Positions 3,030 through 53,525 of a stretch of DNA of 64,000 nucleotides are shown here, one piece after another (positions within the stretch are counted from its first letter, which is position 1; every line of letters starts with the position of its first letter). Made by a program: the position numbers and the translations under genes. The notes beneath the pieces are model-generated. The model did no database searches and was not told the DNA's origin. It was given only the letters and a program-made list of their open reading frames with translations. This DNA comes from Candidatus Curtissbacteria bacterium (GTDB taxonomy: Bacteria > Patescibacteriota > Microgenomatia > Curtissbacterales > GWA2-41-24): assembly GCA_030647775.1 (NCBI GenBank), contig JAUSJC010000010.1, positions 433,334 to 497,333 on the forward strand, written 5' to 3'.

Positions 3030-3458
3030 TTATAACATTGGCTCTGGCAATTTCCTTACCATTTTTTCAATTTCAGCTACAACTTCATCGGCAAACTTGT
3101 CTAAAAACTGATAGTCTTTAAGAATTGCCCTTTTAACTCCTCTTTGCTTCGCCTGTTCGTTAAATTCCGGCACAGATGAAATTGCAATAACTTTGTCTCC
3201 TCCAAACCTTTCTATATCAAAAACGTGGAACGAGCCGCCGAGCTTACAATCTCTGTCCAAAAGGACAATATCAAATTCAGCTTTGGGGTTACTGTTGACA
3301 TAATTTTCGACTTGGGTGTAGTCAGACAAGCTAATTATGCAGAACTCGTACGGCTGGTCGCCTTCGAGCCGTGAGAGCCTCCCCAAGAGCTTTGAAAGGG
3401 TCAGTAGGTCATCTTCTAAGATCAGAACCTTTTTACTTAATATCATGGAAAAATACAA
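3030..3458 (-). CDS. standalone CheY-like response-regulator receiver domain protein
   Basis: KVLILEDDLL ... DIVLLDRDCKLGG ... KVIAISSV has receiver-domain architecture with no output domain. Confidence 0.55.
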   Translation of the reverse strand: MYFSMILSKKVLILEDDLLTLSKLLGRLSRLEGDQPYEFCIISLSDYTQVENYVNSNPKAEFDIVLLDRDCKLGGSFHVFDIERFGGDKVIAISSVPEFNEQAKQRGVKRAILKDYQFLDKFADEVVAEIEKMVRKLPEPML

Positions 3459-3487
3459 ACGTTTGCTCCATAGATTTGAAAGATTAC

Positions 3488-3961
3488 TTATTTTTCTAGT
3501 TCTTCTATACGTGACTTACTAAGTTTCCAAAGTTTTTTATCAACTAGATAGCCGTTTTGCATTTGAGTTTCTTGATAGTCTTTAAGAGTGAGAATCCTTG
3601 CCTCTCGCCATTTTTTGTTGCTAAATTTTGTTAAAGCTTCTTTGATCGCTTCATCATCGCTTGGGTATTGGATGAGCATAATTTCAGTTTCCTCAAGAAG
3701 TTTCACGTTATCATGCAATCCTTGTTCATAATAGTAGGCTTCCATTTTGTTAAGTGCCCCCTGCAATATACCTTTAGGGTATGGCAATATTGATTCAGGA
3801 ATATTTATGTCAAAAAGCATTCTTACCCCTCCACTATGTTCAAGATGCACTCCCCATATTGAGACAATATTTTGTGCTTCTTCTAGGGTTAACTTTTCAG
3901 CAATATGCTTTGATCGCATTTCGTCAAGTTCTTCTGCTCTTTTCATTAAATCGACACTCAT
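3488..3961 (-). CDS. hypothetical protein
   Basis: 157-aa ORF co-oriented with the receiver gene; no recognisable motif. Confidence 0.5.
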   Translation of the reverse strand: MSVDLMKRAEELDEMRSKHIAEKLTLEEAQNIVSIWGVHLEHSGGVRMLFDINIPESILPYPKGILQGALNKMEAYYYEQGLHDNVKLLEETEIMLIQYPSDDEAIKEALTKFSNKKWREARILTLKDYQETQMQNGYLVDKKLWKLSKSRIEELEK

Positions 3962-4419: not shown

Positions 4420-6180
4420 ATGAAAATTAGAAGTCTCACAATATCGCACTTTCGAGGAATACAAAGCCTGGAATGGAAACCAGCTAAGGATCTGATTTGT
4501 TTGATAGGCCCCGGCAACAGCACTAAAACAACCGTTCTCGACGCTATAAGCATGGCTCTCACTCCTCACTTCTCGGTTAATTTAACAGATGCCGATTTCT
4601 TCAACTGTGATGTCTCCCAAGGAATACAAATCGACGTAGTATTATCCAATATACCTGACGAGCTTCTTAGTTTCGACAATTTAGGTGGCATGATTTGTGG
4701 TGTGAAAGACAATGGTGAGGTTGTTCCAGACCCAATTCAGAACACAGAAAAGGCGATAATAGTGCGATTTAGGGCTGATTCGAGTTTAGAGCCAGTTTGG
4801 GAAGCATACAAACCAGACTCAGAGCTGCCTCCTCTTAGGCTTAGTTCTAGCATGCGAGCAAGCTTTGGACTATTTAGATTGGACGAACGGGTAGATGTGC
4901 ATATGCGTTGGAGTCGAGGGTCTGCACTAGCATTGCTTACAAGCGGTACGGATGCAACGGCTTCTGTAATCGCCCAGGCAAGACGGGCAGCACGAGCAGC
5001 AGTTTTTGGTATCAGTGACGAAGGACTTCGGTCGACAACTCAAATTGTGACAGAAGCAGCTCGTAAATTTGGTGCTACTAATTACACAGAACTTCGTCCT
5101 GGAATAGATCCAGCAAGCTTGAATAATGGCTATGGCTTGACACTCCATGATGGTGAAATTCCGGTGACGAATGAAGGGCTCGGGGTTCGACGACTAACAA
5201 GCTTAGCTATCCAAGATGCAGGAGCGACCAACGCCTCAATTGTTTTAATTGACGAAATAGAGCTAGGTTTAGAGCCTCATCGTCTATTGCACTTGATAAA
5301 CATTTTAAGAAAAAAGGTTGATGGGAACTGCCAAGTTATTTTAACCAGCCATTCCCCGCTAGTAGTGGAATCCTTAGGGACAAATATAGCAAGGGTAATG
5401 AGTCAAGGCTCTACAACGACAATTAAAGAAATTCCAGAAGAAGTTGCCAGTCTGGACTCTGACGCCATGCAAAAGATGATCAGATCAGGACCATCAGCCA
5501 TGCTTGCAACAAGAGTAATTGTGGTCGAGGGGACGACAGAAATGGGCATAATGCGAGCCTATTGTAGGGACTGGGATCGGGAACGAGAGCAAAACAATCG
5601 GAACCCGCTAGCAATTATTGGAACTGCTATTAGGAACGGGCAAGGTGATGATGTATGTCTCAAAAGAGCAGAAAGTCTTGCAAAGCTGGAATATGCGGTC
5701 ATGGCAGTCTTGGATAGTGACAAGCCCCTCCTAGCTGAGGAGCAGGCAGCGATAAGTGCAGGAGCCTCTGTCGTAAGGTGGGGGAATGGAATGGCTATAG
5801 AAGAAAAAATTGCAAGTGAAATTCCTGAAGACAAGCTCTCCGACCTGGTTACGCTCGCAGTTCAATTCAATACTACAGAAAACCCTTCAGAATCAGTGTT
5901 GGGAGCAATATCTGCCCAAATGCCAGGTAGTCCTACTCTTAGTAGTGCTAACCCAACAGACTGGACTGCTCCAATGGCCGACATCCGGGAAGCAATTGGA
6001 AAGGCTGCAAAAAGAAACAAGTGGTTTAAAGTCGAGGATAAGGGAGAAAAATTGGGCGAATTGCTTATTGAATCAATGGCTGATATGCAGGGAACAGATT
6101 TGGCAAAAAAGATGAACCTCATACGAAATTTTGCCTACACAGAAGTAGACCCACAGGAAGCAGAGGGCGAGGATGGATGA
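4420..6180 (+). CDS. gajA: OLD-family ATP-dependent nuclease (N-terminal ABC-type ATPase plus C-terminal Toprim), GajA-like
   Basis: Walker A region LIGPGNSTKTTVLDAI; Walker B IVLIDEIELGLEPHR; Toprim glutamate VIVVEGTTEMGIM and DxD in AVLDSDKP; 586 aa; overlaps the downstream helicase gene. Confidence 0.75.
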   Translation: MKIRSLTISHFRGIQSLEWKPAKDLICLIGPGNSTKTTVLDAISMALTPHFSVNLTDADFFNCDVSQGIQIDVVLSNIPDELLSFDNLGGMICGVKDNGEVVPDPIQNTEKAIIVRFRADSSLEPVWEAYKPDSELPPLRLSSSMRASFGLFRLDERVDVHMRWSRGSALALLTSGTDATASVIAQARRAARAAVFGISDEGLRSTTQIVTEAARKFGATNYTELRPGIDPASLNNGYGLTLHDGEIPVTNEGLGVRRLTSLAIQDAGATNASIVLIDEIELGLEPHRLLHLINILRKKVDGNCQVILTSHSPLVVESLGTNIARVMSQGSTTTIKEIPEEVASLDSDAMQKMIRSGPSAMLATRVIVVEGTTEMGIMRAYCRDWDREREQNNRNPLAIIGTAIRNGQGDDVCLKRAESLAKLEYAVMAVLDSDKPLLAEEQAAISAGASVVRWGNGMAIEEKIASEIPEDKLSDLVTLAVQFNTTENPSESVLGAISAQMPGSPTLSSANPTDWTAPMADIREAIGKAAKRNKWFKVEDKGEKLGELLIESMADMQGTDLAKKMNLIRNFAYTEVDPQEAEGEDG

Positions 6181-7594
6181 AGATTCTGGGCCAAACCCAA
6201 GCAGACTCCTATCAGACCTGCCTTGGTCTATTGTGCTACCCGCTGGTTGTGGTAAGACTCAACTAATTGTTGGAATTGCCGCTGCGACACCTACGGGCTC
6301 TAAGCCTCTTTTAATATTAACGCACACTAACGCAGGAGTTGATGCTCTTCGCAGCCGATTACGGAGACTAGGTGTTGAGCCCAAAAAGTATGATTTGCTC
6401 ACTATAGATAGTTGGGCCAAATTTCTTTCTGGCCACTTCCGTGTTTTGGCAACTAGTAACGACTCCTTAGCGGTAAATGAGGGCGATTGGTCATCAATAC
6501 GTGCAGGAGCCTTAAAAGTTATCGAGTCTGAACATATAGCAGATTTAATAAGAGCAAGCTATTCAGCTTCAATAGTAGATGAGTATCAAGATTGCGATCC
6601 AAGCCAACATGCCATAATTTCCAAGCTAAAAGAATATATACCAGTTGGTGTGCTTGGAGACCCCCTTCAGGGGATCTTTGAATTTGGCAGTTCAAGTGTG
6701 GTGGATTGGGACGCGGTAGAAGCTATTTTTCCAACAAAAAGCCTAGAGATAAAACCCTATCGCTGGATTGAGCGTAATCCTGAGTTAGGAGAGAGTCTGC
6801 TCGCAATACGAAAAAGATTATTGAAATCACAGCCAATCGATTTGTCACAGGAGGAAAAAATAAATTGGATTGAGGCCTCACCGAAGAACCAAAGAGATGT
6901 CTGCTTTGAGGCTCTTCATCGAGAAGGAAAGGTGATCGCCCTCCATCAGCAAGCCAATCAATGTTATAGCTTAGGAAGAAACCTCAAAGGGTGTTTTGGA
7001 GTAATGGAGGAGATTCAGTGCAGGATTGTAAGAGATTTTATAAAAATAGTTGATGAAGGAGACTCTGGCAAAATTGCATCAGCAACATTAAAGTTTGCTC
7101 GTGATTGTTGCATAGGTATTGGCAATCCTCTTGATAAAAAGTGCGAAACGGATTATTCAAATAAAATAAAAAGGAAATTTCAAAAAGGAAGTAAGCCAAG
7201 CGCCTCCATATCTGCCTTGAACGACATAGTTGACAATCCTAGCACGAGAAACATACGCATAGCCCTCAAAGCTTTAAGAGACATAGGGGAAGTTTTTCGC
7301 CGCGAAGCCTGGGTTATCTGCGTTAAAGTGCTTGAAGCGATGGAATTAAATCCGGAGAAAACTGGAATGGAAATATTAGACAAAATCCGAGGGCGAACTC
7401 GATTTATCGGGCGCTTTGAAAGGAAACGATTACTTTCCAGAACTTTACTCGTAAAAGGTCTAGAATATGACGAATGTATTGTTTTGAATGCCGATGGAAT
7501 GAACGCCCGTAATTTGTATGTTGCTCTAACACGGGGCATAGATAAGGTTACAGTGCTTAGTTCTAGCCCAGTCATCACACCCACAGGCTTCTAA
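6173..7594 (+). CDS. gajB: UvrD/PcrA-like superfamily-1 helicase, GajB-like
   Basis: Walker A LPAGCGKTQ; motif II IVDEYQDCDPSQ; 473 aa; 8-nt overlap with the OLD nuclease gene (translational coupling). Confidence 0.7.
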   Translation: MDEDSGPNPSRLLSDLPWSIVLPAGCGKTQLIVGIAAATPTGSKPLLILTHTNAGVDALRSRLRRLGVEPKKYDLLTIDSWAKFLSGHFRVLATSNDSLAVNEGDWSSIRAGALKVIESEHIADLIRASYSASIVDEYQDCDPSQHAIISKLKEYIPVGVLGDPLQGIFEFGSSSVVDWDAVEAIFPTKSLEIKPYRWIERNPELGESLLAIRKRLLKSQPIDLSQEEKINWIEASPKNQRDVCFEALHREGKVIALHQQANQCYSLGRNLKGCFGVMEEIQCRIVRDFIKIVDEGDSGKIASATLKFARDCCIGIGNPLDKKCETDYSNKIKRKFQKGSKPSASISALNDIVDNPSTRNIRIALKALRDIGEVFRREAWVICVKVLEAMELNPEKTGMEILDKIRGRTRFIGRFERKRLLSRTLLVKGLEYDECIVLNADGMNARNLYVALTRGIDKVTVLSSSPVITPTGF

Positions 7595-7624
7595 GTTTTT
7601 GTCTTGATTAAACTTTGTCAAACA

Positions 7625-8650
7625 CTAGTTAATCGTAAAATCGGGAACTTGCAGATTTTCCGCGCTCTCTGGCTTTTTAGCCACATTTAGAGGATGGTTT
7701 TCCATTACCCCTTTTAAATCATCAACCACCAAGTGTGTATATTTTAAAGTGGTATTAAGGCTCGAGTGGCCAACAATCCTTGCTACCTTTAGTGCCGGAG
7801 CTTCTGCTCTTATCAATTCCGTAATAAAACAGTGGCGCAGAAGGTGTAAATGTACCCGTTTCTTAATACCAAGGATTTTTGCCCGTGTTTTAAGTTCGTT
7901 TATGAAGGAGTGGGCAGCAATACGTTTGCTATCCTTAAAAAATGATTTGAAAAGGGGATCTTCCGGTTTAGCCTTTCTTATACTAAGCCACTCTTCTAAC
8001 CTTAAGCCTAAATCGGTAGGTAGGGGCACTAGTCTTGGTTTATTAAATTTGGCGTGTCGTATACGGATAACCATGTCGCCAAAATCAACATCCCCGACAT
8101 CAATAGCCACGGCTTCTGACCGTCTAAGCCCAGTACACGCCACCAACTCAATAAAAAAGTCGTAATATGCCCGATCAAGATACATGTGGCATTTATCATA
8201 GTTTCGTGGGCAGTTAATAATAGCCCTAATTTCATCTACAGTTAGCAGATCCGGGAAGAACGGATCGCTTCTGTTAGCTTTAATACAATATGAAATGTCG
8301 TCCGGCAAAAATCCCTCTTCCAGCCACAACCAACGCAAAAACTGCTTTGTGGATGAAATAATCGAGTTCACCGAAGCCGTAGTAAGACCCTTTTTCTTTC
8401 CCAAGCCGTTGGTTGATTTAGATTTCTGGTCTTTGCAAAAAAGGATGTAATCTCTGGCGGTATCTTTGTTTATTGGTTTCCCATCTATAAAAATAGGAAA
8501 TCGGCGCAAATTGTACCAATTTCGTTGGATTGTCTTTTCTGAAAGCCCTCTATAGCGGTAAAAATCGCCAAATTTGGCAAGAAATCGCTCCATTTGGGAT
8601 TTTTTTACTATTTTGCCCCTTTTACTTGTGTATGACATATAATAAACCAA
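7625..8650 (-). CDS. int: tyrosine site-specific recombinase / phage integrase
   Basis: C-terminal catalytic region HLHLLRHCFITELIRAEAPALKVARIVGHSSLNTTLKYTHL (R..HxxR..Y signature); N-terminal SAM-like domain. Confidence 0.85.
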   Translation of the reverse strand: MVYYMSYTSKRGKIVKKSQMERFLAKFGDFYRYRGLSEKTIQRNWYNLRRFPIFIDGKPINKDTARDYILFCKDQKSKSTNGLGKKKGLTTASVNSIISSTKQFLRWLWLEEGFLPDDISYCIKANRSDPFFPDLLTVDEIRAIINCPRNYDKCHMYLDRAYYDFFIELVACTGLRRSEAVAIDVGDVDFGDMVIRIRHAKFNKPRLVPLPTDLGLRLEEWLSIRKAKPEDPLFKSFFKDSKRIAAHSFINELKTRAKILGIKKRVHLHLLRHCFITELIRAEAPALKVARIVGHSSLNTTLKYTHLVVDDLKGVMENHPLNVAKKPESAENLQVPDFTIN

Positions 8651-10909: not shown

Positions 10910-11560
10910 GTGCTATACGATTTATTAAAACGCACGATCGATATTATTGGCAGCCTCATAATTTTGGCCGTCTTTTCTCCTGTTATCTTAATTACTGCCG
11001 TTTTAATTAAGATTAGTTCCCCCGGGCCGGCCATTTATACCCCCCTGCGTGTCGGCAGGGACGGCAATCTTTTCAAGATGCTTAAGTTCCGCAGTATGTA
11101 CATGTATAAAATTAACGGCAAATTTGTGCATGCTAAAAAATACCTTGAGAAAAATCCCAAACTTATGCGCGAGTACCGGGAAAATAGTTTTAAGCTTGCT
11201 CACGACCCGCGGGTTACGCAGATTGGCAAATTCATTCGTAAGTTTTCCATCGATGAACTGCCGCAGCTTATTAATGTCGCCAAAGGCGATATGTCGCTTG
11301 TCGGCCCTCGGGCTTACCAGGAGGATGAGCTTACCCATCAGCAAAGGGTCTATCCGCATACCAAAAAATATGTAAAAGTTATTTTAGAAGCAAGGCCCGG
11401 CGCATCCGGCCCCTGGCAGGTTTCCGGCCGTTCTTTTATTAATTTTGATAAAAGGGTCATAATGGATGCTAAGTATGTCGAGAGGAGATCAATCTTATAT
11501 GATCTTTGGATCATGATGAAAACTCCAATTGCCATGATTACCGGCAGAGGAGCGGTATGA
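10910..11560 (+). CDS. polyprenyl-phosphate sugar phosphotransferase (bacterial sugar transferase, WbaP/EpsL-like)
   Basis: LKFRSM ... DELPQLINVAKGDMSLVGPR motif; N-terminal TM helix. Confidence 0.8.
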   Translation: MLYDLLKRTIDIIGSLIILAVFSPVILITAVLIKISSPGPAIYTPLRVGRDGNLFKMLKFRSMYMYKINGKFVHAKKYLEKNPKLMREYRENSFKLAHDPRVTQIGKFIRKFSIDELPQLINVAKGDMSLVGPRAYQEDELTHQQRVYPHTKKYVKVILEARPGASGPWQVSGRSFINFDKRVIMDAKYVERRSILYDLWIMMKTPIAMITGRGAV

Positions 11561-17198: not shown

Positions 17199-18518
17199 AT
17201 GGTTAATCTAGAAAAGCTTGTTTCCCTAGCAAAACGAAGAGGTTTTATCTATCCCGGCTCCGAAATCTACGGCGGCCTTACCGGCACTTGGGATTATGGC
17301 CCTTTGGGCGTGGAGCTTAAAAACAATATTAAAAAAGAGTTCTGGAAAAGCATGGTCTACGACCGCGATGACGTTGTCGGTCTTGATGCGGCAATCCTTA
17401 TGAACCCCAAAGTTTGGGAAGCCTCCGGCCACGTTCAGGCTTTCACGGACCCCCTTGTCGAATGCAAAGTTTGTCATGCTAGGTTGCGCGCTGATCAAAA
17501 AGAAGAAATCGAAACACACGAAAACTCGCACAAGGGCCAGAAGGTTGTCTGGACCGAACCCAAGAGATTTAATCTTCTGGTTGAGGCCAAACTGGGTGTT
17601 TTGGAAGATGCCAAGCAAAAAGTTTATCTGCGCGGTGAGATTACCCAGGGTGTCCATGTTAATTTTAAAAACGTCATCGATTCTTCCCGTATGCAAATTC
17701 CCTTTGGTATTGCCCAAATAGGCAAAGCTTTTAGAAACGAAATTACACCCGGCAATTTTACTTTTCGCTCCCGCGAGTTTGAACAGATGGAACTGCAATT
17801 TTATGTAAAGGCTGACCTAAAAGAAGCAGAAAAATGGTTTTTGTATTGGAAAGAAGAACGGATGAAATGGTATGTCTCGCTTGGCATCGATAAATCAAAA
17901 CTCCGTTTCCGCCAACACGAAGAAAACGAACGGGCCCATTATGCCAAAGATGCGTGGGACATTGAATACGATTCGCCGTTTGGCTGGAAAGAATTTGAAG
18001 GTATCCATAATCGCGGTGATTGGGATCTTTCCCAGCACCAAAAACATTCCGGCCAGGATCTTACGTACTTTGATCAGGAGGAAAATAAACATTATCTGCC
18101 GTGGGTTATCGAGACTTCCGGCGGCGTTGACCGCGCCACATTATTTTTCCTTGCCGATGCTTATACCCAAGATGGGGATCGGACTGTTTTAAAACTTCAC
18201 CCGAAACTGGCGCCATACAAAGTAGCGGTTTTCCCTCTTCTTGCCAACAAACCCGATCTTGTTAAAAAAGCCCGCTCTGTCTATGAACTATTAACTATGA
18301 ACCATCAACTTGCTCCTGTCGTTTGGGATGATAGGGGCAATATCGGCAAGCGCTATTTATCTCAAGATGAAATAGGTACGCCTTACTGTATAACAATTGA
18401 TTTTGAGACATTGGAAGATGATACCGTTACCATCCGCGACCGTGATACGACCAAACAGGAAAGGGTCAAATCCGAAAAATTATCTGAAATCCTGATAGGG
18501 AAAATTGCCGCTGGTTGA
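17199..18518 (+). CDS. glyQS: glycine--tRNA ligase (alpha2 dimeric type)
   Basis: N-terminus LVSLAKRRGFIYPGSEIYGGLTGTWDYGPLGVELKNNIK is the GlyRS signature. Confidence 0.9.
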   Translation: MVNLEKLVSLAKRRGFIYPGSEIYGGLTGTWDYGPLGVELKNNIKKEFWKSMVYDRDDVVGLDAAILMNPKVWEASGHVQAFTDPLVECKVCHARLRADQKEEIETHENSHKGQKVVWTEPKRFNLLVEAKLGVLEDAKQKVYLRGEITQGVHVNFKNVIDSSRMQIPFGIAQIGKAFRNEITPGNFTFRSREFEQMELQFYVKADLKEAEKWFLYWKEERMKWYVSLGIDKSKLRFRQHEENERAHYAKDAWDIEYDSPFGWKEFEGIHNRGDWDLSQHQKHSGQDLTYFDQEENKHYLPWVIETSGGVDRATLFFLADAYTQDGDRTVLKLHPKLAPYKVAVFPLLANKPDLVKKARSVYELLTMNHQLAPVVWDDRGNIGKRYLSQDEIGTPYCITIDFETLEDDTVTIRDRDTTKQERVKSEKLSEILIGKIAAG

Positions 18519-39420: not shown

Positions 39421-40698
39421 ATGCCTAAAGATAAAATTATAACTGGAATCGATATCGGTTCATCCAAAATTACCACCATCATCGCCCAGGCCACGGAAGC
39501 TTCAAAGCTCAATATTATCGGCGTCTCGTCTGTCGGGGCCCGCGGCTTAAAAAAGGGCCAGGTCGTCGATATCGAAGAGGCTGTAAAGGCAATTACCCAG
39601 TCTCTGGAATCGGCAGAGAGGATGGCCGGTTACTCCGTCGGCAGCGCCTTTATTTCAACAGATGGTACCCACATTGAGTCACAAAACAGTAAAGGAGTTG
39701 TCGCCGTTTCTAGCCCCAGCGGGGAAATATCCGAGGAAGACGTCATCCGCGTTGTCGAAGCCGCCCGCGCCATTTCCCTTCCCTCATCAAAAGAAATTCT
39801 TCACGTAATCCCCAGGTTTTTCATCATCGATTCCCAAAGCGGCATCAAAGACCCGATCGGCATGACCGGTGTCCGGCTGGAGGTTGAAACCCACATTATA
39901 ACCGGCGCCACCACAGCCCTCAGGAATATCGCCAAGTGCGCCAGCCTTGTCGGCATCGACGTAGATGGGTTGGTTTTTTCCGGGCTGGCGGGTGCTTACT
40001 CGGTTCTTACCGATACCGAGCGGGAACTCGGGGTAATTTTGGTCGATTTCGGAGGCGGAACTACCGATATTACCATTTTCACCGACGGTGCCCCGGTTCA
40101 TAGCGCTGTTTTGCCAATCGGTGCCAAAAATGTCACCAACGATTTGGCAATCGGCCTTCGTGTTTCTTTGGAATCCGCCGAAAAAATCAAGCTGGCGCTT
40201 TCATCTGCCCCAAAAATAGCCGTAGAAATGGACGAAGAAGGTAACGCGCAAGACAAAAAGGAATCCGATAAATTGGACCTTGCCGGCCTTGGCATCGAAG
40301 AAGATTTAAGAAACATTTCCAAAAAAACCTTAACCGACGGCATTATCAAGCCGCGCCTGCGCGAAATCATCAATATGGTTAAACTCGAAATCCAAAAATC
40401 CAACTACGCGGGCCTCACGCCCTCGGGCGTCGTTTTAACGGGCGGCGGTGCCCAAACTACCGGCATGATGGATCTTGCCCGTCAGGAACTCGGTATGCCG
40501 GTTCGAATTGGCAGCCCTATGGGTGCCACCGGCTTAGTCGAAGAAGTTTCCTCGCCCGCCAGTGCTGCCAGCCTTGGTCTTGTCGTCTATGGCAGCCAGT
40601 TCCAAACCGATGACGTCCGCCTGCCCCTGGTCGGCCGTATCCAGATTAAAGGCGCCGTCACCCGCGGCCTCGGCTGGATCAAATCTTTATTACCTTAA
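39421..40698 (+). CDS. ftsA: cell division protein FtsA
   Basis: IITGIDIGSSKITTIIA actin-fold phosphate-1 motif; VDFGGGTTDITIF. Confidence 0.9.
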   Translation: MPKDKIITGIDIGSSKITTIIAQATEASKLNIIGVSSVGARGLKKGQVVDIEEAVKAITQSLESAERMAGYSVGSAFISTDGTHIESQNSKGVVAVSSPSGEISEEDVIRVVEAARAISLPSSKEILHVIPRFFIIDSQSGIKDPIGMTGVRLEVETHIITGATTALRNIAKCASLVGIDVDGLVFSGLAGAYSVLTDTERELGVILVDFGGGTTDITIFTDGAPVHSAVLPIGAKNVTNDLAIGLRVSLESAEKIKLALSSAPKIAVEMDEEGNAQDKKESDKLDLAGLGIEEDLRNISKKTLTDGIIKPRLREIINMVKLEIQKSNYAGLTPSGVVLTGGGAQTTGMMDLARQELGMPVRIGSPMGATGLVEEVSSPASAASLGLVVYGSQFQTDDVRLPLVGRIQIKGAVTRGLGWIKSLLP

Positions 40699-41016
40699 CT
40701 CTATATTTTAATCCTGAGCGAAGTCGAAGGACCTCCTCCCTTAACACAAACTGTCATCCTGAACTCGATTGCAAATTTATGAGTAATAAGCTCTCTTATT
40801 CAGGATCTGGTGTTGGTTCAGGATCTTTTTTAGATTCCGGATCAGGTCCGGAATGACGATGAGGTGCGGGTTGCAAACAGCCTCAGATTATGTTGTTTAG
40901 GGAGTGCTATTGAAACAACGATTTCAATAGCTTTCGTACTAACATCCGGACGAAGTCGGAATAAATTCGCGCACGATAATTACTTCCTCGGTGACTGTTG
41001 CAAATAGGGTTGTATT
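40699..41016. repeat. ftsA-ftsZ intergenic region (318 bp) composed largely of fragments of the palindromic element family (ATCCTGAGCGAAGTCGAAGGAC; GTCATCCTGAACTCGATT; TTCAGGATC x2; CCGGATCAGGTCCGG; TCCGGACGAAGTCGGA; hairpin CTATTGAAA...TTTCAATAG)
   Basis: motifs read directly; the same motifs recur at 42140, 45459, 52532, 53388, 55070 and 58939. Confidence 0.65.
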
Positions 41017-42132
41017 GTGCTTAAATGCCGCTTGCAAATGTTAATCAAGCCCGACGTCAATCGTTTTGCCAAAATTAAAGTCCTCGGCGTTGGCGGGGGC
41101 GGCGTAAACGCCCTCAATTCCATGGTTGCCAATTCTCAAATTCAAGGTGTCGATTTTGTGGCCGTCAATACCGACCAACAGCATCTTTTGGCCTCCATTG
41201 CCCAAACCAAAGTCCAAATCGGGGACGGCATCACCAAAGGTTTAGGTGCCGGTGCCGACCCGGAAATTGGCAAAAAAGCGGCCGAAGAATCTCTCGAGCG
41301 CATTAAACAGGTAATCTCCGGTGCCGACATGGTTTTTATTACTTATGGCGCCGGCGGCGGAACCGGAACCGGTGCCGGTCCGGTAATTGCCGATCTGGCG
41401 CGCAAAATGGGGATTCTGACAGTTGCCGTTGTCACCAAGCCTTTCGGTTTTGAAGGCACCCGCCGAATCGTTGTTGCCGACGAGGGCATAGAAAACCTCC
41501 GCGACCGCGTGGATACTTTAATCGTTATCCCAAACCAAAAACTTTTGGAAGTTGTCGATAAAACCGTTTCCCTTCTGGAAGCTTTCAAGCTTGCCGATTC
41601 CATTCTTTCACAAGGAGTTCAGGGGATTTCCGATATCATTGTCATGCCGGGCCTGATCAATGTTGATTTTGCCGACGTTAAGACCATTATGACCAATGCC
41701 GGCACAACCCTGATGGGTGTTGGTGTCGCCTCCGGCGAAAACCGCGCCGCCACAGCCGCCCGCGCCGCTATTGTCTCACCGCTTCTGGACTCTTCCATCG
41801 AAGGCGCCCGCGGAGTCCTATTTAACATTACCGGCGGTACCGATATGACCATGAACGAAGTCGATGAAGCCGCCAAAGTCATCACCGCCCAGGCCGACCC
41901 TGATGCCCAAATTATTTTTGGCGCCGCCATCGACGAAAAGTTAATCGATCAGATCAAAGTCACCGTTGTCGCCACCGGTTTTGACGAGCAGAGAAGAAGA
42001 TACGTTCAAATGACCACGGAAGATAAAGAAATTCAGGAGCAAGTCCAGTCGCAATCCCAAAACCAGGAAGAAGAACCGGTCATCGACGAAGACGAATTCG
42101 ACATCCCCACCTTCCTCCGCCAAATTCGATAA
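41017..42132 (+). CDS. ftsZ: cell division GTPase FtsZ
   Basis: KVLGVGGGGVNA tubulin signature and GGTGTGAGPV T7 region; the start could be the ATG at 41038. Confidence 0.95.
   Translation: MLKCRLQMLIKPDVNRFAKIKVLGVGGGGVNALNSMVANSQIQGVDFVAVNTDQQHLLASIAQTKVQIGDGITKGLGAGADPEIGKKAAEESLERIKQVISGADMVFITYGAGGGTGTGAGPVIADLARKMGILTVAVVTKPFGFEGTRRIVVADEGIENLRDRVDTLIVIPNQKLLEVVDKTVSLLEAFKLADSILSQGVQGISDIIVMPGLINVDFADVKTIMTNAGTTLMGVGVASGENRAATAARAAIVSPLLDSSIEGARGVLFNITGGTDMTMNEVDEAAKVITAQADPDAQIIFGAAIDEKLIDQIKVTVVATGFDEQRRRYVQMTTEDKEIQEQVQSQSQNQEEEPVIDEDEFDIPTFLRQIR
42089..42132 (+). repeat. left copy of a 44-bp direct repeat (the 3' end of ftsZ)
   Basis: GAAGACGAATTCGACATCCCCACCTTCCTCCGCCAAATTCGATAA versus 42894-42937 (2 mismatches). 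Confidence 0.8.
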
Positions 42133-42139
42133 CCTACCC

Positions 42140-42166
42140 ATCATCATCCTGAACTCGATTCAGGAT
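42140..42166. repeat. hairpin element CATCATCCTGAACTCGATTCAGGATC directly after the ftsZ stop
   Basis: 8-bp stem ATCCTGAA/TTCAGGAT; same family as 40753-40770. Confidence 0.65.
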
Positions 42167-42235
42167 CTATTCAAATATAACTGTAGTATAATAAATCCGT
42201 AATGAAAGATTGCAAAGTAGTATAATATTCGTATT

Positions 42236-42472
42236 ATGAAAGTAATATTTGGAAAAAACATTGTTGCAGATCCAGAAGTTCTTGCAGGTAAACCCGTGAT
42301 TCGCGGGACAAGAATTCCTGTGGATTTAATTCTTAAAAAACTGGCTGAAAATATAACCACGGATAAAATTTTAAAAGATTACCCAAGGCTTACAAAAGGA
42401 CATATCCAGGAAATTCTAAAATACGCCCACTCACTTGTTGCTAGAGAAGAAGTTTATCCAGCGAACCCCTAA
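42236..42472 (+). CDS. DUF433-family antitoxin-like protein
   Basis: 78 aa; GKPVIRGTRIPVDLIL is the DUF433 hallmark; paired with a PIN-like partner. Confidence 0.65.
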   Translation: MKVIFGKNIVADPEVLAGKPVIRGTRIPVDLILKKLAENITTDKILKDYPRLTKGHIQEILKYAHSLVAREEVYPANP

Positions 42473-42481
42473 AAGTACTAA

Positions 42482-42853
42482 ATGTCCAAAAAATTGAAAT
42501 TTCTTGCAGACGAAAGTCTGGAATATTCAATTGTGTTATGGCTCCGCAGCTTAAATTACGATGTAACATCGATTGCCGAAGATTGTCCTTCCGTTGAAGA
42601 TGGAAAGGTACTTAAAAAAGCCACTCAAGAAAACAGAATTATAATTACCAATGACAAAGATTTCGGTGATCTTGTATTTCTCAATAAACTTTCCCACAAG
42701 GGAGTAATCCTGCTAAGGTTTAGGACAGAAGAAGTAGAAACTAAAATTAAATTCCTAAAATCTTTCTTGAACAATTATTCGGACAAAATTACCAATAGAT
42801 TTACCGTAATTGACGAGTCAAAAATTCGCATTAGACAATCTGACGACGCGTGA
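42482..42853 (+). CDS. DUF5615 / PIN-like (Mut7-C-like) putative toxin nuclease
   Basis: KFLADESLEYSIVLWLRSLNYDV ... IIITNDKDFGDL matches PIN-like DUF5615 proteins that partner DUF433. Confidence 0.6.
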   Translation: MSKKLKFLADESLEYSIVLWLRSLNYDVTSIAEDCPSVEDGKVLKKATQENRIIITNDKDFGDLVFLNKLSHKGVILLRFRTEEVETKIKFLKSFLNNYSDKITNRFTVIDESKIRIRQSDDA

Positions 42854-42893
42854 AAATTTTTCAGAATAATTGAAGTAATGGAGTTGAAGACGA

Positions 42894-42937
42894 ATTCGAC
42901 ATCCCCACCTTCCTCCGACAAATTCGTTAATTGTTCT
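42894..42937 (+). repeat. right copy of the 44-bp ftsZ-3'-end direct repeat, non-coding, downstream of the DUF433/PIN-like cassette
   Basis: GAAGACGAATTCGACATCCCCACCTTCCTCCGACAAATTCGTTAA. Confidence 0.8.
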
Positions 42938-42999
42938 TATAACATTAATTGTGCGACGCTCTAATAATTTGTTAACTTTAGTACAATAGTAAATAAAAA

Positions 43000-43299
43000 A
43001 TGAAGTATTCAGAGATGGACGATGAAAGCCTAATACAACACATCAAGGATGGTATTGGACCAGGAGGTACTGCTGCCGCTCAATCCGAGCTGATGAAGCG
43101 GTGGCTTTCAAAGCTAAATGGTGCAGTAAGTAAGGTTGAATCTTCTGCTTTGTCAGTTTCAAGTGCCGTCGATGAATTGCATAAGACGATTAAGAATTTT
43201 AATAAACAATCCGCAAGGTCAACGAAATGGATCATTGTACTTACTATAGTCATGGCTCTGCTAGCATCGGCACAAATAATCGTATCATTTGTTAACTGA
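43000..43299 (+). CDS. hypothetical protein with a C-terminal TM helix
   Basis: 99-aa ORF; hydrophobic C-terminus. Confidence 0.4.
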   Translation: MKYSEMDDESLIQHIKDGIGPGGTAAAQSELMKRWLSKLNGAVSKVESSALSVSSAVDELHKTIKNFNKQSARSTKWIIVLTIVMALLASAQIIVSFVN

Positions 43300-43359
43300 C
43301 AAGTTACGACTTCGGGTAAAAGAGGAAGGCACCTATTTTTGTATAAGTGAAGTTAAGCT

Positions 43360-43809
43360 CTACTTTTTAAGTAGACTTTCGTATCTTTTTTCGATTTCTT
43401 CCATTCTAATGCTCCAGTTTCTGATTTCGTCATAGTTTATATCTACCCCAAGTCCAGACCATTCAAAACCAGTCACCCATTCATCCAAATTTTTTGTGTA
43501 ATCCCGCCAATCGGTTGTGACCTCAAACAGCTTCTTGGTGTCGTGTTTAAGTCTTTCTGACAGCTTGACAAAATTCTCTCTTGTTTGCTGTGCACCAAAC
43601 TTTGCCTCAACTAAGTTTTTTCTAACATCTTTATCCTCCTTCTCGTCAATGAAAGATTCAAGTCTCTTAATGGATTTAGAATATGCACGATTAGCGAATA
43701 ACTGGAGGATTGGGATTTTTATTCCTTTTGGAGCGTAGTGAAGCGCAAACCAATATACAACAACTCCGATGGCCAAAGAAAAGATAAACCTGAGAATATT
43801 GTCTAGCAT
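43360..43809 (-). CDS. hypothetical protein with an N-terminal TM helix
   Basis: 149-aa ORF. Confidence 0.45.
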   Translation of the reverse strand: MLDNILRFIFSLAIGVVVYWFALHYAPKGIKIPILQLFANRAYSKSIKRLESFIDEKEDKDVRKNLVEAKFGAQQTRENFVKLSERLKHDTKKLFEVTTDWRDYTKNLDEWVTGFEWSGLGVDINYDEIRNWSIRMEEIEKRYESLLKK

Positions 43810-43902
43810 ACTGCTAACCTTTCTCAGAACCTAAATAGGGTAGATGACTTAGGAATGCCAACTTCCCTCCGCCGAAAAGTTAGTTAGCTTATAATAACAT
43901 CT

Positions 43903-44457
43903 ATGAAAGTTTTAGTAACGAGGGAAGAAGCAATTATTGAAACTATGCCCTTTTCCAGGGAACTGGTATTGTGGTGTAAAACATACCCCGATTTTGCAAA
44001 AGCATTAAAAATTGTGTACCCAGACAAATTTCTCACTTTAGGTGCTATTGTAACCAGTTTCTGCTCATATAAGCCCAAAGACCAGGTTATCGGAATTTAC
44101 GCCTATGCCTATACGATGAAAGAACCAATCTTCAAGCAAGATTTCGTAATAAACAAAGGGAGTTTACATAAACGATTCATTCTTTATACAAGATACCCAA
44201 CTGCAAGCAAAATGATAAAGGACATTTCTGATTTTTATCGAACTTATGGCATGGATAACAACTATATTAATACTCATCATTTGACCTTCGAGCAATTACC
44301 TGACAAGGTAAAACCAGCGGGACTGAGAGCAGTACAGCTTGCCGAAAAAATTCGCAAAAATGGTCTTTTAAAGAATGACCCGTTCCATACAAAAAAAATA
44401 TATGAAGGTATCATACGAGCTAAAAAAACTGATTGGTTCACAAAAGAAAAATTGTAA
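43903..44457 (+). CDS. hypothetical protein
   Basis: 184-aa ORF; no recognisable motif. Confidence 0.45.
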   Translation: MKVLVTREEAIIETMPFSRELVLWCKTYPDFAKALKIVYPDKFLTLGAIVTSFCSYKPKDQVIGIYAYAYTMKEPIFKQDFVINKGSLHKRFILYTRYPTASKMIKDISDFYRTYGMDNNYINTHHLTFEQLPDKVKPAGLRAVQLAEKIRKNGLLKNDPFHTKKIYEGIIRAKKTDWFTKEKL

Positions 44458-44615
44458 AATTTATTTGTGTTTTATAAGTAGCCAGGCGTTGCTGAGGCCG
44501 GGCGGGAAGCCGTGCGTTTTTACAAGCGCGAACGAACCCTTTACCTTTGATTGGTACAAATAGTGAATATCCGGTGTTGGTGTGGGAGAAATCGGTACAA
44601 TTCCTATAACGAATA

Positions 44616-44840
44616 TTATTCGGTTGAAACGGTTAGACCCAAATGATCTTCAATTGTAGTAATCCTTCTTGTATGAGATTCTAATGTTTCTTTGATTTCC
44701 GTTACATCTTCAGAAACTTCAGAGAGTTGAGCTACAATGCCATCCAGCTTGTTAGTGTGCTCGTCAAGGGTTTCCTTAATGGGTTCTAGTTTTTCTTCAA
44801 TTAGTGCTCCGATTTGTTCCAAATCAGTTTTATTCATCAA
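44616..44840 (-). CDS. small acidic coiled-coil protein
   Basis: 74 aa, Glu/Leu-rich heptad pattern. Confidence 0.35.
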   Translation of the reverse strand: MMNKTDLEQIGALIEEKLEPIKETLDEHTNKLDGIVAQLSEVSEDVTEIKETLESHTRRITTIEDHLGLTVSTE

Positions 44841-44918
44841 TAGCCATTATTGGCGCGTCACAATTATATGTCAATAAGTACTTTACCAAACCCGCCACGG
44901 ATAAGGTAAAATCATCTA

Positions 44919-45455
44919 ATGATTGTCGCCCTTGGCTCCAAAAACCCCGCCAAAATTGGGGCGGCAAAAATCGCTTTCGAAAAAGTTTTTTCTAAGGAAA
45001 AAATAAAAATTGTCGGCGTGGAAGTTAAATCGGGCATTTCCAGCCAGCCCATGTCAGACAGGCAGTCAATCCGCGGGGCTATTAACCGCGCAAAACAAGC
45101 ACTCAAATCAATCAAAGGCGCGGATTTTGGGGTTGGTATGGAGGGTGGTATCCACAAAATCGGCAAAAAGTGGTTTGAATCCGGCTGGATCGCCGTTGTC
45201 GATAAAACCGGCAAAATCGGCCTTGGCACTTCCGCCCGCTGGGAAATGTCGGCTAAAGTCATGGGCAAATTGGAAGGAAAAGGCGAACTGAGCCATGTCT
45301 TTGAAGATTTGGCCAAAATCGAAAACGCCAAAGATGTCGGTGGGGTCATGGGCCTTGTCACCAAAAATATCCTGCCGAGGGATCTGGCTTATTCCCACGG
45401 CGTCATCTTCGCCCTCGCTCCATTTTTCTCCGACCCGGTTTTCTGGGATGAGTAA
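44919..45455 (+). CDS. non-canonical purine NTP phosphatase (YjjX/ITPase-like, DUF84)
   Basis: IVALGSKNPAKIGAAK ... GVGMEGG ... similar to YjjX inosine/xanthosine triphosphatase. Confidence 0.65.
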   Translation: MIVALGSKNPAKIGAAKIAFEKVFSKEKIKIVGVEVKSGISSQPMSDRQSIRGAINRAKQALKSIKGADFGVGMEGGIHKIGKKWFESGWIAVVDKTGKIGLGTSARWEMSAKVMGKLEGKGELSHVFEDLAKIENAKDVGGVMGLVTKNILPRDLAYSHGVIFALAPFFSDPVFWDE

Positions 45456-45458
45456 AAT

Positions 45459-45507
45459 TGTCATCCCGAACTTGTTTCGGGATCTAAATCCTCTAAATCG
45501 GGATTTA
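45459..45507. repeat. two adjacent hairpins (GTCATCCCGAA-cttgt-TTCGGGATC; TAAATCC-tctaaatcg-GGATTTA) between convergent yjjX-like and GIY-YIG genes; the first supplies the last codons and stop of the GIY-YIG gene
   Basis: palindromes read directly. Confidence 0.65.
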
Positions 45508-45757
45508 CGCTCTTTATCAAATTTATTTTCCAATCTCTGTGCCAATTTTTTAATTGTTTTTCTCGAGCAATAGCTTCCTTGGCCTGACTATACTGTTCTA
45601 GATAGATAAGTTTTTTTAATTTATATTTCTTTGTAAACCCGTCAACAAATTCGTTTCTGTGCTCGTAAACCCTACGAGTCAAATCATTTGTGACGCCGAT
45701 GTAAAAAGTAGTGTTATGGAAATTAGTTAGGATATAGACAAAATAATTTTTTGTCAT
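45461..45757 (-). CDS. GIY-YIG nuclease-domain protein (UPF0213/YhbQ-like)
   Basis: YFVYILTNFHNTTFYIGVTNDLTRRVYEH contains GIY...YIG and the conserved Arg and Glu; the last about 9 codons and the stop come from a palindromic repeat element. Confidence 0.8.
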   Translation of the reverse strand: MTKNYFVYILTNFHNTTFYIGVTNDLTRRVYEHRNEFVDGFTKKYKLKKLIYLEQYSQAKEAIAREKQLKNWHRDWKINLIKSVNPDLEDLDPETSSG

Positions 45758-46367
45758 GAGCTATTATATACAGATGCTGAAGCGAGTTCAGCATGACAAA
45801 TTAATGGACGAACAAAAACTCCTTGACGAAATTGCCGAAGAGATAGAAAAGTGCAAAACCTGTAAAGTTGGTAAAACAGGCAAGCCTGTTCCCGGTGAGG
45901 GCGATCCAAACGCCGAAATTGTTTTTATCGGTGAAGCACCGGGCCGGACGGAAGGGGAGACAGGTCGGCCGTTTATCGGCCGTTCCGGCCAGTATTTAAC
46001 AAAACTGATCGAGTCAATCGGCTTGAACCGAAGCGACGTTTTTATTACCAGCCCCGTTAAATATTTCCCAATTAAATCCGGCAAAGGCAGGGCGCCGACC
46101 GACGCCGAAATTGCCCACGGAAGGAAGCATTTATTAAAACAACTAGTAATAATCGATCCAAAACTCATCATCCTTCTAGGAAAAGTTGCCTCAAAAGCCA
46201 TCCTAAAAAAAGATATACTAGTATACTTGGACCATGGAAAGCTCTTGAGAGAAAATGGCAGGACATATTTCATCACCTATCACCCCGCCGCCGCCATCCG
46301 TTTCCAGAAATTTAAGGCTTTAATAGAACAAGACTTCAAACTGCTCAAACGGTTAATAAAAAAGTAG
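45756..46367 (+). CDS. family-4 uracil-DNA glycosylase
   Basis: CxxC N-terminus; GEAPGRTEGETGRPFIGRSGQ motif. Confidence 0.85.
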   Translation: MSYYIQMLKRVQHDKLMDEQKLLDEIAEEIEKCKTCKVGKTGKPVPGEGDPNAEIVFIGEAPGRTEGETGRPFIGRSGQYLTKLIESIGLNRSDVFITSPVKYFPIKSGKGRAPTDAEIAHGRKHLLKQLVIIDPKLIILLGKVASKAILKKDILVYLDHGKLLRENGRTYFITYHPAAAIRFQKFKALIEQDFKLLKRLIKK

Positions 46368-53383: not shown

Positions 53384-53525
53384 ACTGGTCATCCGAACTC
53401 GTCTCGGCATCTAGATCCTGAAACAAGTTCAGGATGACGCTAAGATTGCTTCGCGGAGTTTACCCCGACCTGAACAGATCCTTCGCTTCGCTCAGGATGA
53501 CAGGGAGGGGCGCGCAATGACATAA
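53384..53525. repeat. ileS-SEDS intergenic cluster of palindromic elements (GTCATCCGAAC...GATCCTGAA-acaag-TTCAGGATGAC; GATCCTTCGCTTCGCTCAGGATGACAG; CGCAATGAC)
   Basis: read directly. Confidence 0.65.

Follow-up and report, generated by a model that had tools for sequence, protein, structure and literature searches.

Why should the last codons of ftsZ occur a second time, in noncoding DNA, on the far side of a toxin–antitoxin (TA) gene pair? The question is raised by the DNA directly behind ftsZ in a Candidatus Curtissbacteria bacterium of the Candidate Phyla Radiation (CPR), within a stretch of 64,000 nt that we call the window (contig JAUSJC010000010.1, positions 433,334 to 497,333). The window holds three copies of the ftsZ end, which bound two layers of integrase-less DNA, and the TA module is the youngest layer. 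We favor, at about even confidence, the reading that this module arrived with a replacement ftsZ end by recombination anchored in the conserved gene, displacing the resident end. Mobile elements and routes of gene flow in CPR bacteria are poorly known, and the codons of the FtsZ C-terminal peptide emerge here as a recurrent insertion site in the CPR, in Curtissbacteria and in at least one distant lineage of Patescibacteria. An essential gene would tolerate such insertion through a synonymous replacement of its end that the incoming DNA supplies.

Two copies of the ftsZ end around a toxin–antitoxin cassette

From ftsZ to the second copy of its end, the locus reads as follows:
41038 to 42132, + strand: ftsZ, 364 amino acids (aa), intact, ending in the conserved C-terminal peptide DIPTFLRQIR (open reading frame (ORF) list; Pfam Tubulin and FtsZ_C)
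42088 to 42132, + strand: copy 1, the working ftsZ 3′ end including TAA (repeat and DNA search)
42144 to 42168, + strand: hairpin repeat TCATCCTGAACTCGATTCAGGATCT, 8-bp stem, −8.8 kcal/mol (repeat search, folding)
42183 to 42216, + strand: partial tandem duplicate (34-bp period) of the cassette −10 box and start-codon region (GTAGTATAAT...ATGAAAG)
42217 to 42235, + strand: conserved left edge of the cassette, with the −10-like GTAGTATAAT about 10 nt before the start codon
42236 to 42472, + strand: DUF433 (COG2442) antitoxin-type gene, 78 aa (PF04255, 76.9 bits, E 1.1e-21)
42482 to 42853, + strand: DUF5615/Mut7-C PIN-like toxin-type gene, 123 aa (PF18480, 83.8 bits, E 9.4e-24; PF01927, 26.7 bits, E 6.6e-6)
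42854 to 42885, + strand: joint, made of 10 nt common to other cassettes (AAATTTTTCA) and 22 nt found nowhere else (GAATAATTGAAGTAATGGAGTT)
42886 to 42930, + strand: copy 2, the displaced ftsZ terminus, 43 of 45 nt identical, in noncoding context (repeat and DNA search)

The direct repeat (GAAGACGAATTCGACATCCCCACCTTCCTCCGCCAAATTCGATAA in copy 1, TAA included) had no match in any shuffled version of the window. Its two mismatches, at 42120/42918 (C/A) and 42129/42927 (A/T), are both synonymous, and the peptide EDEFDIPTFLRQIR followed by a stop is encoded by copy 1 and copy 2 alike. An earlier interpretation made from the letters alone (the sequence-only reading) had described a 44-bp duplication with two mismatches, a second copy at 42894–42937, and a spacing of 760 bp; the repeat and the mismatches are real, but its length is 45 nt, the coordinates of the second copy were about 8 nt too high, and the intervening segment measures 753 bp (42133–42885). 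The same reading was right to place the second copy in noncoding context, with an in-frame stop at 42871–42873 and no entry in the same-strand ORF list. Copy 2 is ftsZ-like along its full length, has lineage-specific codons in common with copy 1 (ACC TTC CTC CGN), and shows sharp limits of homology, on the left at 42886 and on the right exactly at the stop codon. The two copies are closer to each other than either is to the ftsZ end of any relative. The window FtsZ is 100% identical to a protein annotated as FtsZ of Candidatus Curtissbacteria (P0001); exact look-ups of the window FtsZ and PIN proteins gave no match, and the relatives used below came from homology searches.

The interior, taken by the sequence-only reading for a repeat hairpin plus a DUF433 gene and a DUF5615/PIN-like gene, was confirmed as such by Pfam and by repeat search, with all cut-offs exceeded (PF04255, 23.6 bits; PF18480, 23.8 bits; PF01927, 23.3 bits). 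The two genes are adjacent and co-oriented, antitoxin first, with a 9-nt gap, and the cassette carries its own −10 box. By its domains the pair appears to be a member of the DUF433(COG2442)–PIN, or VapBC10-type, class of TA systems, which had been predicted earlier (PMC2701414) and for which toxicity and neutralization were demonstrated with ssr2962/slr1767 of Synechocystis PCC 6803 (PMC3834315). Gene order, gene sizes, and the 9-nt gap are common to the Synechocystis system and the window pair, which are likened by family and layout; what sets the window pair apart is its DUF5615/Mut7-C PIN-like toxin, its CPR host, and the unusual place directly behind ftsZ. A PIN-type addiction module at this place could tie loss of the region to cell death and so stabilize the end of the division gene cluster.

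The cassette has a G+C content of 0.35 and is not ameliorated to the 0.5 of its host. Across the locus, G+C falls from about 0.5–0.57 in ftsZ to 0.32–0.39 from 42150 to about 44900, so that foreign-looking DNA extends beyond copy 2.

The ftsZ end as an attachment site

What stands behind ftsZ differs among the relatives of the window:
L161/L162, FtsZ 97% identical: ftsZ, then unrelated small genes and a HicAB pair; no cassette
L166/L167, FtsZ 97% identical: ftsZ, then a tyrosine-integrase element; no cassette
L165, FtsZ 92% identical: ftsZ, then a P-type ATPase cluster; no cassette
L002, FtsZ 83% identical: ftsZ, then a convergent gene; no cassette

The absence of the cassette and the differing DNA behind ftsZ in close strains mark the region as hypervariable. 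The claim that the TA module was inserted at the very end of ftsZ is upheld by the closest relatives (97% and 92% FtsZ identity), which lack the cassette; the accompanying expectation of empty sites is borne out only this far, since these strains carry other DNA behind ftsZ and not an exact empty site.

The L166 locus shows how the ftsZ end can be used. A 7.3-kb element starts right after ftsZ and encodes an integrase (PF00589; phrog_1, E 8e-52), together with a weak replication-initiator match and a helix-turn-helix regulator. The element is bounded by attL at 11054–11098 (GAATTCGACATCCCCACATTCCTAAGACAGATCAGATAGCCTCTT) and attR at 18371–18415 (GACTTAGGAATCCCCACATTTCTGAGACAGATCAGATAACTTCTT), and the sequence past attR is homologous to the DNA directly behind ftsZ in L165. 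The 16-mer GAACCTAAATAGGGTA lies directly left of attR and has an exact match in the window at 43827–43842, where it opens a 30-nt arm stretch that is 29/30 identical to L166 and leads into a decayed third copy of the ftsZ end (p about 0.004 for the local alignment versus shuffles). The window beyond copy 2 thus reads:
42935 to 42960, + strand: terminator-like hairpin remnant, its 3′ half ATTGTGCGACGC at 42948–42959
43000 to 43809: cargo of the older layer, a 99-aa membrane-anchored ORF (43000–43299, + strand) and a 149-aa ORF (43360–43809, − strand), without family match and low in G+C
43827 to 43856, + strand: arm motif GAACCTAAATAGGGTAGATGACTTAGGAAT, which agrees at 29 of 30 positions with the L166 sequence immediately left of attR
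43857 to 43887, + strand: copy 3, a decayed ftsZ terminus in which CCAACTTCCCTCCGCCGAA matches CCACCTT-CCTCCGCCAAA by alignment, the apparent attR of an old integrase-type insertion
43903 to 44840: further low-G+C ORFs of 184 aa (+ strand) and 74 aa (coiled-coil, − strand), up to the core NTPase gene at 44919

The sequence-only reading had proposed looking for the att-like sequence elsewhere, and the decayed copy in the window and the ftsZ-end repeats in L166 are what that comparison returned; no fourth copy of the ftsZ end or of the arm motif was found in the window. The third copy and an arm motif common to it and the integrase element of L166 point to an attachment hotspot with stacked layers. 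The codons of the FtsZ C-terminal peptide are a genuine attachment site of tyrosine-integrase elements, and the older layer (42931–43856) with copy 3 appears to have been left by one of them. To this extent, that the site is an attachment hotspot, the earlier interpretation is supported. We found no report of ftsZ as attB or as an integration target in the literature searched, and neither the L166 integrase nor the arm motif had a match in IMG/VR viral contigs.

Related arrangements occur at two further loci. In L165 a duplication of the ftsZ end surrounds 4.9 kb of integrase-less cargo and comes with a degenerate arm motif. In L005 (7090–8430; Patescibacteria, 61% FtsZ identity) a single CNNM/CBS-domain gene stands between ftsZ and a second copy of the terminus (WDIPAFLR... 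to the stop), and four of the differences between its copies are synonymous.

The locus may be likened to tandem island accretion at the 3′ end of a gene, as described for ICESt1/ICESt3 at fda and for integrative and mobilizable elements (IMEs) and cis-mobilizable elements (CIMEs) (PMC5704250) and for the ssrA islands of Dehalococcoides (PMC3146451). Stacked downstream segments are likewise bounded there by direct repeats of a gene 3′ end, a short conserved motif stands just upstream of the displaced repeats, layers without an integrase occur next to a related element that has one, and strains differ greatly in this region. In these systems the newest arrivals insert next to the target gene (PMC5704250, PMC3146451); the identity of the repeats in the window drops with distance from ftsZ, from 96% to roughly 70%, which is the order expected from such insertion. 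The window differs in that its target is the coding end of ftsZ, its layers are tiny (0.8 and 0.9 kb), and copy 2 is without the arm motif. A further difference is that the displaced piece encodes the same peptide of an essential housekeeping protein.

These observations bear on the possibility that the youngest layer is itself a product of site-specific accretion. A 798-bp integrase-less unit, CIME-like and made up of the hairpin, the TA genes, and one att core, would then have been integrated at the ftsZ-end att by a tyrosine recombinase acting in trans, with copies 1 and 2 as attL and attR. The demonstrated att site in L166, the same arm motif at copy 3, the integrase-less cargo between ftsZ-end repeats in L165 and L005, and the newest element lying next to the gene all speak for this account. 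Against it, the arm motif of the L166 type, present at copy 3, is absent at copy 2, the left side of which is ftsZ sequence preceded by 22 unique nt. No recombinase domain was found between 42133 and 44900 by Pfam scan, which fits the definition of a CIME only (PMC5704250), and the window contains a single tyrosine recombinase, which lies 34 kb away and has 25% identity to the enzyme of L166. Moreover, copies 1 and 2 are each other's closest relatives, so that an element-borne mimic of the gene end would have to be conspecific. We regard accretion by an integrase in trans as the main rival of gene-end replacement, a real possibility though a doubtful one.

Movement of the cassette and a proposed replacement of the gene end

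Close relatives of the cassette are few, with 67–85% PIN identity and a maximum of 85% between the window toxin and its closest relative. In four other lineages (L001/L082, L168, and L084), whose FtsZ proteins are 79–84% identical to that of the window, the cassette again stands behind ftsZ, mostly with the same hairpin; no intact second copy of the ftsZ end is present in the three with downstream sequence (L001/L082 and L168), and the L084 contig ends inside the toxin gene. The sequence-only reading had counted a cassette without duplication in relatives as evidence against insertion, and this situation exists in part, as L001/L082 and L168 have the cassette at the same junction without an intact second copy. 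The duplication is thus no obligatory by-product, but the cassette is not thereby shown to be native. The hairpin sits between ftsZ and the cassette in the window, L001/L082, and L168, and also precedes the cassette in L169 and L172, where the arm motif and an ftsZ-end-like core (IPTFLRQIR followed by a stop) come directly before the hairpin and TA genes, with cargo genes and not ftsZ upstream. The most economical reading of L169 and L172 would be that another element was inserted between ftsZ and the TA unit; the arrangement of arm and core counts in favor of the integrase in trans. L172 showed no terminal overlap of the kind looked for in a circular element. In L085, L170, and L171 the cassette precedes a glycosyltransferase gene, and it occurs in further contexts as well.

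Across at least five different contexts, the conserved part is confined to the stretch that starts at the −10 box and ends about 10 nt beyond the toxin stop; the left edge is kept in six contexts, and the sequence upstream of it is not conserved between them. Identity at third codon positions among seven cassette lineages is 0.61–0.71, versus 0.44–0.50 for ftsZ of the same hosts, and synonymous divergence (dS) between the window and L001 is about 1.05 for the cassette, 2.0 for ftsZ, and 3.3 for ftsA. The cassette therefore coalesces later than its hosts, which means that it has spread horizontally.

Duplications accompany the cassette at three targets and differ in length from one to the next (21, 45, and 75 nt). 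In L096 (172–3496) a family member with 69% DUF433 identity and a frameshifted toxin gene stands directly behind secA and is flanked by a repeat of ~75 nt of the secA terminus (2716–2790 and 3422–3496), both copies of which encode the SEC-C zinc motif and reach a stop codon; the displaced copy begins at the toxin stop codon with zero spacer and still scores at the Pfam threshold. In L081 (4690–8600) the cassette occupies an intergenic, non-ftsZ site, with a repeat of 21 nt on its two sides. An ftsZ-specific integrase cannot explain the repeats at secA and at the intergenic site, and the 32 nt (window) or 0 nt (L096) between toxin stop and gene-end copy leave no room for arm-type sites, both of which weigh further against an integrase acting in trans. 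Among the wider set of DUF433–DUF5615 loci (L081–L160), scanned over 200–250 nt per side, an exact flanking repeat of at least 13 nt was found in 11 of 60 loci versus 9 of 804 control positions (18% versus about 1%), with extended repeat lengths of 13–154 nt.

Several of these loci deserve mention in their own right. The arm motif GAACCTAAATAGGGTA and a decayed core occur in L081 3.2 kb downstream, past five small membrane-protein genes. Flanking repeats measure 61 nt in L097, 37 nt in L159, and 38 nt in L149/L151. In L141 (346–1295) and L143 (4567–6290), different TA cassettes form arrays, with ~150-nt repeats of 90%+ identity between them, and the L143 repeat holds, three times, a fragment resembling the N terminus of a TIR-type protein (NDKPAVRELYQKL). 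The DUF433–PIN cassette of L149 (81–2733) lies between two copies of an ABC-transporter ATPase fragment (…SGMYVRLAFAVAAHLEPEILLVDE…) at a spacing of about 2.3 kb, which suggests a larger duplication at that locus.

Repeat-flanked family members at three targets, the excess of flanking repeats across the family, and the sharp, conserved edges of the cassette could also be taken to mean that the cassette moves by itself, duplicating its target through staggered cuts 20–75 nt apart, possibly made by the PIN-like nuclease. The differences between the copies are hard to reconcile with this. Over four ftsZ loci and secA, 25 differing nucleotides are synonymous and 10 nonsynonymous, a bias with P = 6e-10 against a neutral expectation of 22% and P = 1.7e-4 against an expectation of 40% under free decay of one copy; in the window alone both differences are synonymous (P = 0.046). 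The bias implies that the copies diverged while both encoded a working peptide, and filling in followed by neutral decay is inconsistent with it. The gene-end copies appear to be two alleles, one from a donor and one resident, or else the resident end and a mimic of it carried by an element, not the product of a filled-in staggered cut; mimics carried by integrase-type elements would likewise give synonymous-only differences, a point in favor of integration in trans. In both gene cases the repeat ends exactly at the stop codon, a repeat is missing in 7 of 10 close relatives, some of the distant cases turn out to be arrays of cassettes whose spacers are repeated (L141, L143), and the cassette has neither terminal repeats nor a recombinase or transposase domain. 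Intrinsic target-duplicating movement is accordingly very improbable, and the target-duplicating half of the earlier claim is not supported. A DDE or other transposon with target-site duplication was rejected for lack of a transposase domain and of terminal inverted repeats, for the variable repeat length (21, 45, or 75 nt by locus), and for the synonymous bias. An integron gene cassette was rejected as well: the repeat is ftsZ coding sequence and not an imperfect palindrome, and no integrase is nearby (no dedicated attC model was run).

In the gene-end replacement that we favor, copy 2 would be the original ftsZ 3′ end, displaced by an incoming replacement terminus with the hairpin and the DUF433/DUF5615 module. 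The donor DNA would have come from a close relative that already bore ftsZ, hairpin, and TA genes in this order; the left crossover would have been homologous, within conserved ftsZ sequence, and the right end joined without homology 45 nt before the resident stop codon. Possible routes are homology-facilitated illegitimate recombination (HFIR) or single-crossover integration of a circularized fragment carrying 45 nt of ftsZ. A length of 45 nt is near the lower limit for RecA-dependent exchange. It is the enzymology of this youngest event and its donor that we infer; the three copies, the arm motif, the hotspot, the horizontal spread, and the synonymous bias are shown by the sequences. The outcome would be an intact ftsZ with an addiction-type module immediately behind it. 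The target ORF is indeed kept although the insert is bounded by direct repeats that include its 3′ end (copies 1, 2, and 3); the insert would have brought along its own copy of the terminus and so left ftsZ whole. The predicted recipient allele is ftsZ followed directly by TTGTTCTTATAAC..., and the predicted donor allele is the cassette, AAATTTTTCAGAATAATTGAAGTAATGGAGTT, and then other sequence.

Gene-end replacement explains the ftsZ-type left half of copy 2 and its missing arm motif, the sharp boundaries of homology, the variable repeat lengths, and the parallels at secA and in L081; repeats of 21, 45, and 75 nt fit arbitrary illegitimate joints. One-sided or single-crossover recombination is known to create duplications of homologous gene ends in an Escherichia coli lacZ assay (PMC3240628), which yields the same succession of gene end, insert, and gene end, with a repeat length set by the homology carried, although the repeats there were 109–950 bp from an engineered plasmid. 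HFIR has been proposed as the route to displaced 3′ ends in arrays of Rhs and type VI secretion system (T6SS) effector–immunity genes (PMC5361080). In Rhs, CdiA, and T6SS displacement arrays a toxin and protector pair is likewise attached to a piece of a conserved upstream gene, the old 3′ end is pushed downstream as an orphan, and repeated events build arrays (PMC5361080); the upstream gene here is an essential housekeeping gene (ftsZ, or secA in L096) and not the toxin itself, and the displaced piece is only 45–75 nt long, encodes the same peptide, and leaves the host gene functionally unchanged. The locus may thus also work like C-terminal displacement.

Several points weigh against this reading. 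Sliding identity of the window ftsZ to the 97% relatives L161 and L166 showed no mosaic break, and among the relatives compared there was neither an exact empty site, with ftsZ directly followed by 42931 onward, nor a donor. Measured frequencies of HFIR are low (PMC3240628, PMC5361080). The ftsZ end being a proven att site, an integrase route is plausible, and a flanking-repeat scan of 200–250 nt per side favors the detection of short inserts. Finally, relative to L168, L169, and L001, copy 2 with 26 nt forms a clean 71-nt extra block between the cassette and the terminator-like hairpin, which is found directly 3′ of the cassette in those loci, so that gene-end replacement requires such a hairpin to have stood behind ftsZ, or to have headed the older element, before the import.

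The 71-nt block, clean also in comparison with L082, speaks for a different history. In it the TA unit, hairpin and terminator included, has long been resident as the left end of a 1.7-kb element that copies 1 and 3 delimit, and copy 2 with its 26 flanking nt is a later, separate insertion of 71 nt, for example the footprint of another element or a template-switch copy of the ftsZ end. Four lineages share the unit of hairpin, TA genes, and terminator, a unit of this type is closed by the arm motif at 43827, and L081 shows the same order, with an arm motif 3.2 kb to the right of its TA genes. On the other side, no mechanism is known that would insert 22 unrelated nt along with a 45-nt copy of a sequence lying 750 bp upstream, the TA unit is absent from the 97% relatives, and the parallel repeats around the same cassette at secA and in L081 go unexplained. 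We consider an old residence of the TA unit quite unlikely.

An artefact of assembly, with a strain variant or a circular molecule threaded into the chromosome at the 45-bp repeat, has to be considered for a metagenome-assembled genome (MAG) whose P0001 contig measures 526,960 bp and in which the DNA downstream of ftsZ is extremely variable among strains. With two differences between the copies, a repeat length (45 nt) below that of typical reads, and analogous structures in independent assemblies (L096, L166/L167, L165, L005), an artefact is scarcely credible.

Gene-end replacement would provide a concrete case of a TA module spreading between lineages on conserved gene termini, with its parallel at secA. 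If general, it would link TA mobility to the C-terminal displacement logic of polymorphic toxins, and displaced gene-end fossils could be used to date and order insertion layers. A more far-reaching idea, which we think unlikely, is that DUF433/DUF5615 cassettes are recombinase-free, or PIN-nuclease-assisted, selfish units that travel with the last 20–150 nt of a conserved neighbor gene, use it as portable homology or pseudo-att, and leave the resident end behind, with a preference for the constrained C-terminal peptides of essential genes (ftsZ, secA); the excess of flanking repeats, 18% versus about 1%, would then be the trace of this lifestyle.

Other features of the locus

Neither the 22-nt stretch left of copy 2 nor the sequence right of it had an informative match among the loci compared. 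A scan of 42050–44000 for consensus promoters and terminators gave counts not above those of shuffles, no known RNA family was found in 40600–45900, and no tRNA or tmRNA target was found near any of the loci.

The 34-bp tandem duplication at the left edge of the cassette (42183–42208 versus 42217–42242) is 73% identical and is absent from all relatives in the alignment. The hairpin behind ftsZ belongs to a dispersed repeat, TCATCCTGAA-N5-TTCAGGATCT, that lies at gene ends in the window (42144–42168, 45772–45796 on the − strand, 53413–53437 on the − strand, and 40754–40770) and also occurs in L002, L001/L082, L168, and L169; it may be a terminator or a mobile mini-element.

Taken as a candidate for a decayed ftsZ end, ATTGTGCGACGC gave alignments no better than shuffles (p 0.085–0.9); it is the 3′ half of the terminator-like hairpin. 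The corresponding motif ATT(G/C)TGCGAC(G/A)C recurs (window 42948–42959; L166, 17141; L169, 861 and 3519; L168, 3886; L001, 6033) as the 3′ half of a GC-rich hairpin followed by T-runs, which folds well in L169 (−15.1 kcal/mol, z −3.4) and probably serves widely as a terminator for the cargo genes of these islands.

The tyrosine recombinase mentioned above (341 aa, 7625–8650, − strand) adjoins a 473-aa helicase-like ORF, and the region 6173–8650 may mark another island. Among the loci compared, L001, L003, L004, L008, and others carry FtsZ of the Curtissbacteria or CPR type under titles such as "uncultured Gammaproteobacteria" or "Pseudomonadales" and are likely mislabeled MAG bins.

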